A stretch of DNA of 64,000 nucleotides from Candidatus Micrarchaeota archaeon (GTDB taxonomy: Archaea; Micrarchaeota; Micrarchaeia; Anstonellales; Bilamarchaeaceae). Of this stretch, positions 5,799-63,083 are shown piece after piece. Location of the stretch: contig JBBSVN010000004.1 of assembly GCA_038046765.1 (NCBI GenBank), positions 130,844-194,843 on the forward strand, written 5' to 3'. A program made the position numbers and the translations under genes. The notes below the pieces were generated by a model that made no database searches, had not been told where the DNA came from, and was given only the letters and a program-made list of their open reading frames with translations. Numbering within the stretch: the first letter of the stretch is position 1; each line of letters starts with the position of its first letter.

Positions 5799-5934
5799 TA
5801 CCTAGTGAAATATATTACAAACGTATTTCTCTAGGAGAATTCACTGAATTTAAACGATTACTTCGTTAATAATTTATCATAAGTTTCGCGCTTTATGCGC
5901 GCCACTTAGTAAAAATAGAAAGTTCGAAGCAATA

Positions 5935-6231
5935 TTAAAGAGATGCAAGCTTGCTCTGCAGAGTGTATAATCTTTTTACGTACTCTTCATAAACTGATTT
6001 TCGATTTTCCAGAATTAAAAACCAGAGATTAACTTTATCAAAGTAATATACTAAACGCATACCCTCTATTATTATTGAATAACAATTATTTTTGCCTTTT
6101 AAGTGTTTAAATTGGTCTGGGCTTTGTTTAATAATTTCCAGTTTTTTATTTACGATATCCAACTGATTAGAGTTGAGGGTCTCCAAATCCCTAAAAAATT
6201 TAGGGTGGTACTGGATTTGAAAATCAGACAT
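5935..6231 (-). CDS. RelE/ParE-like toxin
   Basis: FQIQYHPKFFRDL...PDQFKHLKG...MRLVY...RKSVY; overlaps the stop of the upstream small gene. Confidence 0.75.
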   Translation of the reverse strand: MSDFQIQYHPKFFRDLETLNSNQLDIVNKKLEIIKQSPDQFKHLKGKNNCYSIIIEGMRLVYYFDKVNLWFLILENRKSVYEEYVKRLYTLQSKLASL

Positions 6232-6442
6232 TTTTTACGCCTTTAGCCTTCATGAATTTTTTATAGTCGTTTTCATTCAACATTTGAACCTGACTGGTTT
6301 TAGCTTCAGATAGCCTTTTTTCTGATTCAATAGTTAAAGCAGTGTCAAGAATTTTTTCATAATCAACTAAAAGTTTTTCAAAATCAAAAATAAAATTTTC
6401 AAAGACTTGCTTTTGAACAGTTATTGTTTCCATTTTCATCAC
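6224..6442 (-). CDS. putative antitoxin
   Basis: 72-aa ORF directly upstream of, and overlapping, the RelE-like gene. Confidence 0.65.
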   Translation of the reverse strand: MMKMETITVQKQVFENFIFDFEKLLVDYEKILDTALTIESEKRLSEAKTSQVQMLNENDYKKFMKAKGVKNV

Positions 6443-6478
6443 ATAAGTATTATTCTTTAAGAATATTTAATAGTTTGT

Positions 6479-8281
6479 TTACTTCATTAACAATTTCTCG
6501 TAAGTTTGACGAGTTACACACGCCACCCCGTAACCGACGCCGTGCCCCCTGTTGGCACCGACATCCTGCCCGACGAAGTCGTTCCCGTAGAAGTAACGGA
6601 CCAAAAGACCGGAATATTTTTCAATTCTCCATAAACGTCTTGCGTCTTGATCATATTCATTTGTAGATTTACCAGAAGGAATACCAAATTCATCTTGCTT
6701 ATACCAACCATTTTTTGTGTGTAATTTTATTTCCTTAGTTTTTCCATCCTGTGTTATTACGCATTTTTCTCCATCAAGGTCTACCAATGTTCCAGTCCTG
6801 CAGGGAAATAATCCTAACTTCTGGTATTTCTCCCTTAATTTTGGATTTTGTAAAATCGTATCAATAACTGTGTTTGGTAAGATAACTAAACCTTGTTTTT
6901 CTAATGCAAGAGTTTGTTCTAAGTTTAGGTTTTTATGGACTTGGATTTCTTTACTTGTAAGGTCAAGTTTTGACCAGTCGGCAACTCCAACAGGAGTTGA
7001 CGAACCAAGAACTCCTTGCCAATGATGGGGGTCTAGCATTCCTTTGAATTTACCATTCTCACCATCTTGGAGGAATTTTCTTTCTTCTTGAAGTTGTTTG
7101 AGTTTTGTCTTGTATCTTCTCCTAAAAAGGTTCAAACTAGTTAGAATAACAGAAACAATAAACAGCGTAGTTAATTCTATAGTCGTTATAGGGAGATTTT
7201 TGGCAACTGATACAATAAAAATTATGACAGAATTTAAACTTACATATCCTAAAAGCAAAGGTGCAAAACCAGTTTTTCTAATCCATATTTCTAAATCTTT
7301 AATCTCCTTATCAAGTTTTTCAATTCGTGCCAAAGCAGTTTCCTGTTCTTTTTGAACTGGTTCTAAAGCAACATTTTCATTTACCAAAATGGCTAAAACT
7401 TCTCTTACTTGTGCAGCATTTTGATACCTATTTTTAGGATCAACTTCTAGGCATTTACCAATAATTTTTTCAAACCCCCTAACGGATGCAGGAGCATTAC
7501 CAGAATCAATTGCCTCTTTTAAATCTTCTTTATCCATGCCAGCTAAGAATATTCCAAGTAGTGCGCCAAATGAATAAAGGTCAGCAGATGCTGATACTCT
7601 TTTTGAACCACTAGCTACTTCAGGAGGAGTGCATTCATAATTATTAACTGCCCAAATAGTTGTCCCAGTACTGTTTCTAACCTGAACAAAAGCAAAATCA
7701 ATTAGATAAAGCTTGCCATCTGGAGTTACAATTAAATTTTCTGGTTTGACATCCTTATGAACTATTGGGGGATTTTTACTATGCAAATATTCTAAAATAT
7801 CAAGTAGCTGATTAGCTAAAGAAAGCACCTGATTTTTATCTAAATGAACATTTTCATCTATTAAATGTTTTAATGTTTTACCTTCAACAAAGTCCATCAC
7901 AATATATTGTTCCTGTTCAGTTTGATTTCGATAAGAATCGATTAATTTTGGAATGCCTACGTGATCTGCTTGAGACAAGATATTTATTTCACGCTCGGCT
8001 AGAGCAAAAATTCGATGGTCTTTTACAACGCTTAAACTCATGTCTTTTACTACAACTAATTTTTGATGTGTAATAGAATAAGCAAGATAAACTTCTGCAT
8101 TAACTGATTGTGTTGGGGAATCTTCTTTTTTATCCCTTGAAAGTAGTTTAAGTAAAGAATATTTATTCCCATTAATTATTTTTGTACCAAGAATATGCTC
8201 TGGAACTGGAAGAGGTAGAACTATTTTTGCCTGATCAATAGCAACTAAAGACCTAGTAATAGCTAATCTTGGTTCTGCCAT
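6479..8281 (-). CDS. Hanks-type Ser/Thr kinase with two TM helices and a C-terminal putative DGR target (C-type lectin-like) domain
   Basis: VVVKD, EREINIL, VHKDVKPENL, IDFA, PPE, DLYSFG; two hydrophobic segments; C-terminal domain paralogous to 62442-63083. Confidence 0.88.
   Translation of the reverse strand: MAEPRLAITRSLVAIDQAKIVLPLPVPEHILGTKIINGNKYSLLKLLSRDKKEDSPTQSVNAEVYLAYSITHQKLVVVKDMSLSVVKDHRIFALAEREINILSQADHVGIPKLIDSYRNQTEQEQYIVMDFVEGKTLKHLIDENVHLDKNQVLSLANQLLDILEYLHSKNPPIVHKDVKPENLIVTPDGKLYLIDFAFVQVRNSTGTTIWAVNNYECTPPEVASGSKRVSASADLYSFGALLGIFLAGMDKEDLKEAIDSGNAPASVRGFEKIIGKCLEVDPKNRYQNAAQVREVLAILVNENVALEPVQKEQETALARIEKLDKEIKDLEIWIRKTGFAPLLLGYVSLNSVIIFIVSVAKNLPITTIELTTLFIVSVILTSLNLFRRRYKTKLKQLQEERKFLQDGENGKFKGMLDPHHWQGVLGSSTPVGVADWSKLDLTSKEIQVHKNLNLEQTLALEKQGLVILPNTVIDTILQNPKLREKYQKLGLFPCRTGTLVDLDGEKCVITQDGKTKEIKLHTKNGWYKQDEFGIPSGKSTNEYDQDARRLWRIEKYSGLLVRYFYGNDFVGQDVGANRGHGVGYGVACVTRQTYEKLLMK
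6519..6613 (-). other. putative DGR variable region 1
   Basis: 52 of 80 nt are G/C in 6521-6600; 15 of 27 codons end in C and none in A; ends in GGGGTGGCGTG, shared with region 2. Confidence 0.7.
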
Positions 8282-8401: not shown

Positions 8402-9712
8402 CTAAGAAGAAAGCGAATAATAAACAGACTTTCCCCGCCTGTGCATAAACAAATAACCCATTTTAACAAGACCAGACAAATCATCCCGAGCCGTTCTTTC
8501 CTTTACCTTAAATTCCTTCTTATAGTAAGAGGTACTTAATTCCTTTTTGTTCGCTAGCTCTAGTGCCTTTTGCTGACGGGAATTTAGTTCAGGTTTGGTG
8601 TTAAAAATCCTTAGGATAGTAAACTCTCCCTGCTCTGTATATTCAGGCTCTTTTAGCCCCCACTCTTTGCACTGATTAAATATCTTAGTTGTACCAGTAC
8701 CAAATTGCTCAACATATCCGCATTTATACGCAGTCTTTGCAATAAGCTCATTTCGCGGTTTTGACGCATGTTCTGGTTTTTTTAATTCCTCAACAGTAAC
8801 ACCTTGCGGAAGTAGACCTGGATTTTTTATCTCTATATAATTTTCCTTAATTGAAAGATAGCAGGCACTTGAGGAAAAAAAATCCCGATGAATTATCGAA
8901 TTTATTATAGCCTCGCGAATTGCTTCAACAGGATATTCATATGTTAATTCTCTTCGTGTGCCGATTATTTTAGAAGAAGCGCGAATATTAGATAATAAGT
9001 AAGAATAGACATAATCAATCATATCAAACAGATTACCTTCTATTAGTTTAAGATCTAAAAATTCCGAACCTTTTAAGACCGCGCAGCGAAAGGAAAAATT
9101 AGTAAAGTATTTCTGTGGATTTTTTCCAAAACATATTACAGCCGCATTCTTTAATTTGCCGTTTAGCATTTCAAGATTTTTAAGCACGGATTCTGCGCTA
9201 CCATTTATCTGCATATTTCTCTGTTTCCTTGCTCTATCAATAAAAGTTAGGATTGCATTATCATCTATTTCCGATATTTGTGCGACAGAAGATTGCTTAT
9301 CAAAGGCAATTCTTTCCCAGTTTCTTTTTATAACCAAAGTATCAATTTCACTTCTACTTAGTTTCATATTAGACTTTCCAACCCGCCTGTATGCAATGCC
9401 TTTAGCAAGGTATGGTTTATCAAACCCTTCCTTAACAGATATTTTTATTATGCCCTTATCTAGTTCAATGTATTCGGATATAATATCTGGAAAAATTTTT
9501 GGGTCGGTATTCTCCACGATTATTTTTGTCAGGTTTTCAATCGTATTTTTTCCTATTGAAAGCGGCTTAAGTTTGCCCTCATCACTTACTCCTATAAATA
9601 TTTCTCCACCTTTATGATTTGAAAAAGCAGCAACACACTGGATTATCGCATCCTGGTCGCTAAGACTTTCCTTAAATTCGACAGTTTCACTTTCATTTTT
9701 AGGTATATCCAT
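8402..9712 (-). CDS. AlbA_2 (Schlafen-like) + HATPase_c_4 + winged-HTH protein (often annotated RecG-like/transcriptional regulator)
   Basis: ESETVEFKES, AFSNHKGGEIFIGVSDEG, REAIINSIIHRDF, IKNPGLL, RNELIA, EQFGTG, C-terminal ERTARDDLSGLVKMG. Confidence 0.9.
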   Translation of the reverse strand: MDIPKNESETVEFKESLSDQDAIIQCVAAFSNHKGGEIFIGVSDEGKLKPLSIGKNTIENLTKIIVENTDPKIFPDIISEYIELDKGIIKISVKEGFDKPYLAKGIAYRRVGKSNMKLSRSEIDTLVIKRNWERIAFDKQSSVAQISEIDDNAILTFIDRARKQRNMQINGSAESVLKNLEMLNGKLKNAAVICFGKNPQKYFTNFSFRCAVLKGSEFLDLKLIEGNLFDMIDYVYSYLLSNIRASSKIIGTRRELTYEYPVEAIREAIINSIIHRDFFSSSACYLSIKENYIEIKNPGLLPQGVTVEELKKPEHASKPRNELIAKTAYKCGYVEQFGTGTTKIFNQCKEWGLKEPEYTEQGEFTILRIFNTKPELNSRQQKALELANKKELSTSYYKKEFKVKERTARDDLSGLVKMGYLFMHRRGKSVYYSLSS

Positions 9713-13269: not shown

Positions 13270-14256
13270 ATGAGTACAGTAACTGAAAAAATAAGAGAAA
13301 CTGCAGGACAAAGATTTCAAAGAATAATTAGGACTAATCCTCGTGCATTTGAGAAAAAAGCTTACCTAAAGTTAGAAGGACTGCACGTACTAGTTACTTC
13401 TCCTTTAAGATTAACACATGATGTTGCAATCCCATTAGCAATAAAAAAAGCAGAAGGAACGATCTTACTAATCGCTTACATGTCAGAATCACATGGATGC
13501 TGGAGAAGATTTGGTGGTTCTATTGGTTCATGGTACAATAAAGGAATAGATGAAAATTATCAGACTCTCGATTATAGGGTACAAAAACTTTTAGATAGAG
13601 TAAATCGGGAAAACGAACCAACAGAAATTAGTCTTGATGGAATACCTGTTGATCTAACTGATTTTGAAGTTGCAGCATTTATTGAAAGAAAACATAAGGA
13701 CAGAGTTAAAGAAGTAGAATTATTGCCTCTTGAAGCACAAACCCAAACTCAAATGAAGTTAGAAAAAATCGATATAGCAAGGCAATCAAATGAACCAACT
13801 AAATTTTTAGATCACTGGAAAAGCGGAAGAGATGATGATTACAAATATGCAGAACATTTAACTTTGGTGCTGGAATCAAAAGATGAACAAGTGTTATACA
13901 TCCTTGGTTTGACAAAAAGCGGAATGTTCGTAAAGAGCATTCAAAAGAAATCCGATGAAATAACGCTTTGTGGTTCACCTGCTACTTGCCTGGTTCCGGA
14001 TAAAAGTTGGATCCACAGCCCGATAATAGATTATGAAGGGCAGGAATACGAAGTAAGGGCAGCAGGACATAGCAAGGTAGAAATAAATGAAACTATTTTT
14101 GGAATGCGTAGAGCAAGAAGAGTTAGGATAAAGGGTATACACAGTTCAGAAGAAAGTCCATTTTATAGAATCGACCAGAGAATTACTCCAGTTTATAGAT
14201 TAATCGAAGAAGGAAAACTTGAAGAAGCGCAGATGTTTCTTGATAAGTTAGTTTAG
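13270..14256 (+). CDS. hypothetical protein, paralog of 14272-15393
   Basis: Shares AYxSES..WRRFGG, QTxDYR, PIIxYxGQE and GIHSS..SPFY with the next gene. Confidence 0.8.
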   Translation: MSTVTEKIRETAGQRFQRIIRTNPRAFEKKAYLKLEGLHVLVTSPLRLTHDVAIPLAIKKAEGTILLIAYMSESHGCWRRFGGSIGSWYNKGIDENYQTLDYRVQKLLDRVNRENEPTEISLDGIPVDLTDFEVAAFIERKHKDRVKEVELLPLEAQTQTQMKLEKIDIARQSNEPTKFLDHWKSGRDDDYKYAEHLTLVLESKDEQVLYILGLTKSGMFVKSIQKKSDEITLCGSPATCLVPDKSWIHSPIIDYEGQEYEVRAAGHSKVEINETIFGMRRARRVRIKGIHSSEESPFYRIDQRITPVYRLIEEGKLEEAQMFLDKLV

Positions 14257-14271
14257 AAAAAGTGATAACTC

Positions 14272-15393
14272 ATGACAATTGAAATTAAACTAAGAGATAC
14301 ACCTTTGATAAAACCAATTTCTCCAGACCTTAGATTAGGAAGATTTTCACAGGCAAGAATCCTTGAAGAAAGAAGAATTTTTAAGAGCGAAGCAGATGAA
14401 GTAGAATACGTAAGAGCTAGAATAGCTAAGATTGCAAAACAAAACCCGAAAGCATTTCGTAAAATAGCTTCGATTAAAATGGGTCAAACAAAAATTCAGG
14501 CAGGATCCCTCCTAAGATTATGTAGGGATATTGGAATTCCTTTAGTAATTACTCAAAATAATAGAACAATAACCGTAATGGCATATTTATCAGAATCCCA
14601 AGCCAGTTGGAGAAGATTTGGTGGGATTTATCTAGGAAAATATTATAAAGGCAGAAATGAACACTTTCAAACTTTTGATTATAGAATACAGAGATTTTTA
14701 GATGAACTTGCTAGCACTCGTCCGCATTTAGATATCCAATTAGATACAGAACCAGTTAGACTTAGCGAATTTCGAGTAACTACAATTAGACGCAAGGGAT
14801 CAACTAAAGACTCGATTTCTTGCATTTTATCAATAGAAATGGAAAATGATATTCAAAGGCCAATAAAATCAGAACAAATAAATTTGGATGATAGTGAAAA
14901 TTTACCTAAGAAAATTTCTGACTATTGGTGGAGTGGTGAAGAAGAAGGAATTTATGGTAAACATGTATCACTAGTTGTAGAATCAGAAAATGGAAAACAA
15001 ATATTTTTAGTTGCTGCAACCAGAGATGGTATGTTTGTTAAATCAATTGCGAAAAAAGAAACTCTAGAGGTTAATGAAGGCGGTTTGGTGATACCAGCAG
15101 TAGTACCTAAGCAAGAATGGATACTCACACCAATAATCGAATATGATGGTCAAGAAGCAGCAGTAGAAGCAGCCGGATTATCTAAAATAGATGTGAAAGA
15201 TACGCACGCAAGAATTCGAGCAAATAGGGTACGAATAAATGGTATCCACAGTTCCTCTAAAAGTCCATTTTATCAACTAGACAAAATTCTAACACCAATT
15301 TATTACCTTTTAGCAGAAGGCAAATACGAAGATGCCGAACTAGGATTAAGAAAAATAATGGGACTAGAAAAAAGAGATACGCTAATCGACTAA
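14272..15393 (+). CDS. hypothetical protein, paralog of 13270-14256
   Basis: Same conserved blocks as the previous gene. Confidence 0.8.
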   Translation: MTIEIKLRDTPLIKPISPDLRLGRFSQARILEERRIFKSEADEVEYVRARIAKIAKQNPKAFRKIASIKMGQTKIQAGSLLRLCRDIGIPLVITQNNRTITVMAYLSESQASWRRFGGIYLGKYYKGRNEHFQTFDYRIQRFLDELASTRPHLDIQLDTEPVRLSEFRVTTIRRKGSTKDSISCILSIEMENDIQRPIKSEQINLDDSENLPKKISDYWWSGEEEGIYGKHVSLVVESENGKQIFLVAATRDGMFVKSIAKKETLEVNEGGLVIPAVVPKQEWILTPIIEYDGQEAAVEAAGLSKIDVKDTHARIRANRVRINGIHSSSKSPFYQLDKILTPIYYLLAEGKYEDAELGLRKIMGLEKRDTLID

Positions 15394-62441: not shown

Positions 62442-63083
62442 TTATTTTATTTTTAATTTCTCATAAGTTTCTTTGGAGATGCACGCCACCCCCGAGTCAA
62501 TGGACCAAACGGTGATGGCAACAACGCCACGTCGGCCGTAGAAGTAGCTGACGTCGCGAACGACAAAACCCGAATATTTATCTGATCGGTATAAGCACCG
62601 CGCATCAGGATCAGATTCATTAGATGGTACGCCAGTTGGAATACCAAACTCGTCTTTTTTATACCAGCCATTTTTTGTATGAAGTCTGATTTCTTTTGTT
62701 TTTCCATCCTGTTTTATTATGCAATTTTCTCCATCTAAATCTACCCATGTTCCAGTTCTGCATGGAAATAATCCTAATTTCTCGTATTTTTCCCTTAATT
62801 TTGGACTTTGTAAAATCTTATCAATAATACTGTTTGGCAAAATTACAAAATCTAGTCTTTCTAACTCCAAGGTTTGTTCTAGGTTTAAGTTGTGGAATAT
62901 TTCTATTCGATCATTTTCAAGGTCTAGTTTTGACCAGATAGGTCTTGGAATTAAGGAGTGTATTTGACCCATTTGTTCTGGCGGAATAGGTTTTCTTACG
63001 ATTGATTCATCAACAAAATGAGGTGCTGCTCTAGAAATTGGGATAACTTTTGCACCTTTAGCTGGGTCTTTGTACCTAAACAT
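62442..63083 (-). CDS. stand-alone putative DGR target protein, paralog of the kinase C-terminal domain
   Basis: Shares WSKLDL, NLNLEQTL, ILQxPKLREKY, LFPCRTGT, QDGKTKEI, KNGWYK.DEFGIP, KYSG, GVAC and TYEKL with 6479-8281. Confidence 0.85.
   Translation of the reverse strand: MFRYKDPAKGAKVIPISRAAPHFVDESIVRKPIPPEQMGQIHSLIPRPIWSKLDLENDRIEIFHNLNLEQTLELERLDFVILPNSIIDKILQSPKLREKYEKLGLFPCRTGTWVDLDGENCIIKQDGKTKEIRLHTKNGWYKKDEFGIPTGVPSNESDPDARCLYRSDKYSGFVVRDVSYFYGRRGVVAITVWSIDSGVACISKETYEKLKIK
62482..62574 (-). other. putative DGR variable region 2
   Basis: 49 of 80 nt are G/C in 62481-62560; 15 of 27 codons end in C; ends in GGGGTGGCGTG. Confidence 0.68.

Follow-up and report, generated by a model that had tools for sequence, protein, structure and literature searches.

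A kinase gene with a predicted membrane hairpin and lectin-like domain is a remote DGR target in a Micrarchaeota genome whose DGR reverse transcriptases are broken at a repeat tract

Variable proteins that combine an N-terminal Ser/Thr kinase with a C-terminal C-type lectin (CLec) domain have been described as DGR targets in cyanobacteria, remote targets included (Vallota-Eastman et al. 2020, PMC7517822). Kinase-CLec proteins and remote targets are also reported from other bacteria (PMC10907252, PMC11661182, PMC5758913). Dore et al. 2024 (PMC10907252) describe clade 5 'antigen sensor' targets in Thiohalocapsa PB-PSB1 and further multicellular bacteria, and the preprint of Roux et al. includes a viral CotH-kinase target. 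Related archaeal systems are the DGRs of the DUSEL4 Nanoarchaeota (Paul et al. 2015, PMC4372165) and the protein AvpA (PDB 5IOO; Handa et al. 2016, PMC5006420). Archaeal clade 5 targets are described as typically having no transmembrane, conserved or otherwise recognisable domain (PMC8144416). Neither an archaeal kinase target nor a repeat-switched DGR reverse transcriptase (RT) is mentioned in the available text of the literature searched, which includes PMC8867640, PMC10053308, PMC8632793 and PMC6349945; the main DPANN survey (Paul et al. 2017) and supplements lie outside that scope.

In this study, we examined a kinase gene in the genome (G000) of a Micrarchaeota archaeon, assembled to 1.52 Mb and 89.7% complete. 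The closest named relatives of an aCPSF1-like protein encoded in the window are Micrarchaeota records, with identities of up to 77%. The window, i.e., the whole stretch of 64,000 nt that was analyzed, corresponds to G000:C4:130844-194843 of this assembly, and the sequencing runs best matching it are labeled as groundwater metagenomes. Kinase-CLec proteins and remote DGR targets are already known in bacteria; the window kinase is a real and well-supported remote target. The features of the locus are compiled in Table 1.

Table 1. Features of the kinase gene, its templates and its surroundings (window positions unless a genome and contig are given)
Feature	Position	Strand	Basis
Gene for kinase, helical hairpin (two hydrophobic segments) and CLec-fold domain, 600 aa, remote DGR target	6479..8281	-	ORF, Pfam, template match, structure prediction
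Hanks-type Ser/Thr kinase domain, residues 62-286	7424..8098	-	Pfam Pkinase, E 7.9e-32, over cut-off
Predicted membrane hairpin, residues 340-360 and 366-386, 5-residue turn, then basic RRRYK (387-391)	7109..7264	-	Hydrophobicity
C-terminal domain, residues 431-600, predicted AvpA-like C-type lectin fold	6482..6991	-	Structure prediction, fold comparison
Variable region (VR), 77 nt, codons 560-584 of 600	6529..6605	-	Alignment to template
IMH-like end of VR, CGGGGTGG (template has CGAAATGA)	6523..6530	-	Alignment
Weak hairpin 3' of VR, 5-bp stem, 7-nt loop, no GAA triloop	6497..6513	-	Sequence
TR-B, template of the kinase VR, outside the window, 65.4 kb away	G000:C4:71940-71864		Genome-wide scan
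TR-A, template of the second cassette, with its own target	G000:C4:13422-13338		
(AG)7 tract in the cassette B RT (L029); matching tract in the cassette A RT (L030)	G000:C4:71418-71405		
Stand-alone paralogue of the C-terminal domain, 213 aa, with orphan VR-like patch (~62564-62484)	62442..63083	-	Alignment
72-aa ORF, possible antitoxin from position only	6224..6442	-	No relevant family match
98-aa RelE/ParE-like ORF	5935..6231	-	Weak: ParE E 0.037, RelE/StbE E 0.004, both under cut-off
55-nt remnant of the gene family's 3' tail, directly past the gene pair	5858..5912	-	Sequence match

The kinase domain retains K79, E98, D177, N182, D195, E221, D234 and R285, which are invariant in 7/7 aligned family members and represent the catalytic Lys, the alphaC Glu, the Asp and Asn of the catalytic loop, the Mg-binding Asp, the APE Glu, and the C-lobe Asp and Arg. 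In the window kinase, the glycine-rich GxGxxG loop is absent, and DFA and HKD replace DFG and HRD. The protein is probably active as a kinase. An initial reading of the locus, made from the sequence without database searches (the sequence-only reading), had proposed two transmembrane helices followed by RRRYK, with kinase and variable domain on the same side of the membrane. Both stretches and the basic motif are present, but hydrophobicity is only moderate; a full-length structure model of low confidence places helices at 289-359 and 365-406 around a turn. The common side is compatible with this evidence and, though itself a prediction, quite probable. Because of the basic residues and the missing N-terminal signal, that side would be the cytoplasmic one; the kinase is likely membrane-anchored, with its lectin domain in the cytoplasm. 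The C-terminal domain has no Pfam match and no sequence-level match to any PDB chain. The CLec fold expected from the sequence was nevertheless borne out by structure prediction, with AvpA and lectins as the top structural matches, and this fold is predicted with near certainty.

A sharp change of codon usage close to the 3' end had first drawn attention to this gene and is real: in codons 561 to 587 (window 6601-6521), 15/27 end in C and none in A, at a GC content of 65.4%, compared with 50/558 ending in C, 452 in A or T, and 33.4% GC in codons 1 to 558 (binomial P for at least 15/27 C-ending codons, 1.2e-9 for a single window picked post hoc). A genome-wide scan retrieved the template that a DGR target should have. 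Over 77 nt, the kinase VR deviates from TR-B at 16/28 template adenines and at 0/49 other positions (P = 2.2e-9 for random placement of the differences); the runner-up sequence in the genome matches TR-B at merely 33/49 non-adenine sites. TR-B is situated between its own cassette target (C4:73056-72205; 13 adenine changes, no others) and an RT gene, and also matches the VR of a second kinase gene (C1:23010-24938; 15 adenine changes, no others). One repeat is thus common to the template, the RT gene locus and three targets, with 0/49 non-adenine differences each. This adenine-only template, the DGR-type RT genes beside it and the CLec fold all support the DGR interpretation, and it is practically certain that the kinase gene is a DGR target. 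Because the template match is exact, the gene offers a clear example of trans targeting, at a distance of 65 kb and between contigs, with a degenerate hairpin and Avd not found.

Across the three VRs, 42/44 changes fall on codon positions 1 and 2, and 32 are changes to G. The 19 variable codons allow about 5.7e15 peptides; mutation of one AGA codon can give a stop. The VRs differ pairwise at 13 to 16 sites and share 5 to 7 changes; for the window kinase, 5 and 7 changed sites are shared with the other two and 16 and 13 differ, while 4.6 shared changes are expected from these counts if the VRs are independent. Since sharing is close to this expectation and the 330-nt stretches preceding the VRs of the two kinases are just 80% identical, we conclude that each VR was written from TR-B after the genes diverged. 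Furthermore, the cassette target is only 23% identical in protein sequence to the domain of the kinase: a single template serves different scaffolds. At the end of each of the three VRs stands CGGGGTGG, where the template has CGAAATGA, a putative IMH. Hairpins with a GAA loop and 5- to 6-bp stems are found in the two cassette targets and a 10-bp stem in the C1 kinase; of the three VRs, that of the window kinase matches the template over the shortest stretch on the 5' side. In DUSEL4, the TGGGGT/TGGAAT IMH pair resembles CGGGGTGG/CGAAATGA, and, as here, GAA-loop hairpins lie inside the cassette target genes and VR-only loci occur elsewhere in the genome (PMC4372165). AvpA, the best structural match, has a similarly short VR (27 residues; 25 codons here) but a single domain (PMC5006420). 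In our genome, the remote kinase has no triloop hairpin and no Avd-like gene was found.

Both cassettes have RVT_1 matches with the motifs YVDD and GxxxSQ, the latter presumably the motif of DGR-type RTs. The DGR RT whose presence followed from the sequence-only reading was therefore found beside the templates, but both genes are frameshifted as assembled. Avd was not found, with no bAvd match in the 89.7% complete genome and no ORF between cassette target and template. The accessory gene avd is common but not universal (74% of DGRs), and Avd-less DGRs are known (PMC5758913). An older remote copy of the TR-A target (L032, G000:C1:53246-54121) has a VR with a 9-nt insertion and two non-adenine changes, and its GAA hairpin is intact.

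The two RT genes have the same (AG)7 tract between the motifs GKGTH and KADI, and in both the frame shifts to -1 at this tract. We surveyed this linker in 94 RT loci, of which 92 were scorable and 90 distinct; the genomes are related rather than independent trials, and homopolymer lengths are prone to misassembly. Twenty-six distinct loci are shifted (15 at +1, 11 at -1) and 64 are in frame. Repeats of at least 8 nt (G, AG, AC or C) occupy the linker in 25/26 shifted RTs, the remaining one having G7, compared with 4/64 in-frame RTs and 6/504 control windows in the C-terminal half of the RT. A quick tree was built from 84 rows, leaving out 6 short ones. It places all 25 shifted rows, intermixed with nine in-frame rows, in a single clade of 34 (SH-aLRT 99) that consists of Micrarchaeota and unlabeled archaea; 0/50 rows elsewhere are shifted. 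Two near-identical junctions have G10 in L128 and G8 in L129, which contains a stop at another position, and the frame is kept across interrupted G runs in L064 and L068. A TR/VR pair with at most one non-adenine mismatch accompanies 16/25 shifted and 7/9 in-frame loci (6.5 kb considered for long loci). The length of this intragenic repeat sets the frame, and all frames are present among relatives. A phase-variable RT is the best reading of these comparisons across species and a probable one; transcriptional slippage or plain decay remain as other readings of the tract.

Simple-sequence contingency loci with poly-G and dinucleotide phase variation are well known from Campylobacter, Neisseria and Haemophilus. 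There, as in the RT genes here, the length of an intragenic repeat sets the reading frame; here, however, the gene switched would be the mutator enzyme itself, and the switching is deduced across species, not within a population. The 2017 DPANN survey by Paul and colleagues may mention repeat tracts in DPANN RT genes. An RT broken at a repeat bears on DGR regulation, and pipelines that require an intact RT beside the VR would overlook such systems.

Logan contigs from four runs were aligned to window 6300-7200. The contigs of the three runs that cover the VR (two from the possible source study, one from another; depth 11.6, 13.4 and 2.9) show no VR differences, contigs being prone to drop rare variants; the fourth run has no VR coverage, and differences at 6753-6928 stem from paralogue contigs. 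The absence of VR variants fits an RT in the OFF state and is no demonstration of activity. The system of Thiohalocapsa PB-PSB1 resembles our locus in having CLec domains fused to signaling domains, a kinase among them, some with transmembrane segments and a cytoplasmic CLec, and diversification in trans (PMC10907252). It differs in its measured population variation and NTPase/vWA partners, neither of which was seen in this small-genome archaeon.

We consider it reasonably likely that the locus as a whole is a remote DGR target encoding a changeable cytoplasmic ligand sensor on a likely membrane-anchored kinase, with rewriting that is likely gated by the repeat. As established for DGRs, template RNA would be reverse transcribed with errors at adenines, and the cDNA would replace the VR in trans from the IMH-like end. 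The 19 variable codons are predicted to line the binding face of the AvpA-like fold, and the two-helix hairpin is predicted to hold kinase and lectin domain on one side. A ligand, most plausibly a foreign protein from a virus or a host cell, could then cluster the kinase or lift autoinhibition. If a rare cell lost one AG unit, its RT would be turned on and yield variants, which slippage back would lock in. The sensor role, already suggested by the sequence-only reading, is kept here in this conditional form. Through its fusion to a kinase, a variable lectin pocket of an archaeon would have an output that can be measured, phosphorylation; such a target points to intracellular signaling or defense beyond attachment.

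For the cyanobacterial kinase targets, which likewise carry a Hanks-type kinase on a VR-bearing CLec, have paralogues dispersed over the genome and are targeted remotely, the same two models, autoinhibition and substrate choice, have been put forward (PMC7517822). Those proteins have a bacterial-type CLec, are mostly predicted to be cytosolic and were linked to templates at a threshold of >50% identity. Here, the host is archaeal, the domain is AvpA-like with no Pfam match, a hairpin separates the domains, the template match is exact, and the RT is broken at a repeat. The window protein is perhaps best regarded as a sensor rather than a substrate adaptor. As an adaptor, it would be a DGR target too, with a variable pocket that selects the protein to be phosphorylated (own, viral or host) and with no on-switching. 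This possibility, which was raised as an alternative for the cyanobacterial targets (PMC7517822), suits two domains predicted at the base of one hairpin on the same membrane side, unlike a trans-membrane receptor. It appears unlikely, as most members of the domain family, among the matches listed, are stand-alone and enzyme-free, which fits a general binding module. That the system died recently, so that the RT frameshifts are plain inactivation and the kinase VR a frozen record of earlier rewriting, is an improbable reading. Two out-of-frame RTs, the failure to find Avd, the lack of variants in assembled contigs, several VR-like patches left as orphans and the decay of a third kinase of this genome speak for it. 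The break, however, recurs at the same linker with four repeat unit types and both shifted frames, in 25/34 RTs of one clade and 0/50 others; scattered through this clade are in-frame members whose G runs are pure or interrupted, and the VRs have no non-adenine drift.

Very improbable is a pseudokinase or membrane effector, i.e., a nucleotide-binding switch with the hairpin as output (e.g., membrane damage on sensing an invader), perhaps together with the RelE-like neighbor. The missing glycine-rich loop, the DFA motif, the marginal hydrophobicity of the hairpin and the adjoining RelE-like and Schlafen/AlbA genes are offset by the catalytic Lys, Glu, Asp, Asn and Asp conserved throughout the seven aligned members and by the C1 sister kinase, which has no such pair; the tail remnant past the pair suggests insertion there. 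That the kinase VR came from another target through recombination or gene conversion, instead of by retrohoming at this locus, is hardly credible: its weak hairpin, its short 5' template match and the tail remnants, which imply recombination at these 3' ends, would agree with this origin, but the VR shares about as many changes with the other VRs as independence predicts, differs from them at 16 and 13 sites, and homology ends at the VR edges. 

Extending the sensor reading, we tentatively propose, as a speculative idea, that Micrarchaeota possess receptor-kinase-like immune or host-recognition sensors made of an archaeal DGR lectin on a membrane-hairpin kinase. One template would rewrite a stand-alone binder and two kinases in trans, and the slippery RT repeat would limit hypermutation to rare cells and then lock specificity, a two-tier (switch, then diversify) adaptive signaling.

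Furthermore, we analyzed the distribution of the C-terminal domain. The window paralogue is, as noted initially, similar outside the variable segment (99/140 aligned residues identical) and divergent inside it (8/21). Its patch matches neither template (27/49 and 29/60 non-adenine sites), and no other template was found in the assembly. Other stand-alone members for which the assembly has no matching template are C1:2147-2791, C7:99000-99743, C16:27985-28803 and C2:115892-116674 of G000. We read template-less members as orphans of lost or unassembled cassettes. The domain family matches 78/301 genomes of the class, a tally that takes in two unpublished genomes (G130 and G318), neither of which enters any other result given here. 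Among the matches listed, nearly all lie in ORFs of <360 aa, two longer frames in other genomes are stand-alone proteins, and most members are stand-alone proteins of about 200 to 350 aa with no enzyme. A single genome, G035, has 48 matches, a large family expansion.

The fusion of kinase and domain was found in three copies in the window's genome and in G014, from another genus of the family. The third copy (L033, G000:C8:49823-51379) is decayed, with a shortened lectin domain that is out of frame before the conserved tail. The genome with the G014 kinase-hairpin-lectin fusion (L179:451-2367) consists of one contig, and no RT match was found in it. No further fusion occurred among 23 kinase loci from 16/401 genomes (21 kinase frames read by motif filter), with three candidates scored per genome and several kinase frames cut by the locus end. 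Kinase-hairpin proteins without the lectin domain are present in G298, G350 and G408, so that the domain was likely added to a pre-existing scaffold. The motif RGGxW...GFR is typical of FGE-type lectin domains; it occurs in L203 (G296:C51), a kinase with one transmembrane segment and bacterial-style architecture that is possibly transferred or misbinned.

Finally, we inspected the neighboring genes. The gene pair downstream of the kinase had been taken for a toxin-antitoxin pair: it does lie on the same strand, but the toxin match is weak, and for the 72-aa partner no match to an antitoxin family was obtained. Nothing was found linking the pair to the kinase, and we do not count it as part of the DGR system. 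A second tail remnant, downstream of the C1 kinase (G000:C1:24950-24990), resembles the tail of the C1:2147 paralogue. With remnants after both kinases and no RelE-like pair downstream of the C1 sister, insertion or recombination at the 3' ends is the simpler reading; the remnants point to an exchange of 3' ends or to insertion with target duplication. A gene for a Schlafen/AlbA_2 plus HATPase_c_4 protein (window 8402-9712, -) lies directly upstream of the kinase gene in the same orientation. Elsewhere, the window contains a free-standing LAGLIDADG-like ORF with a C-terminal helix-turn-helix (1037-2095, +) and two adjacent, apparently paralogous ORFs of 328 and 373 aa with no Pfam family (13270-14256 and 14272-15393, +).
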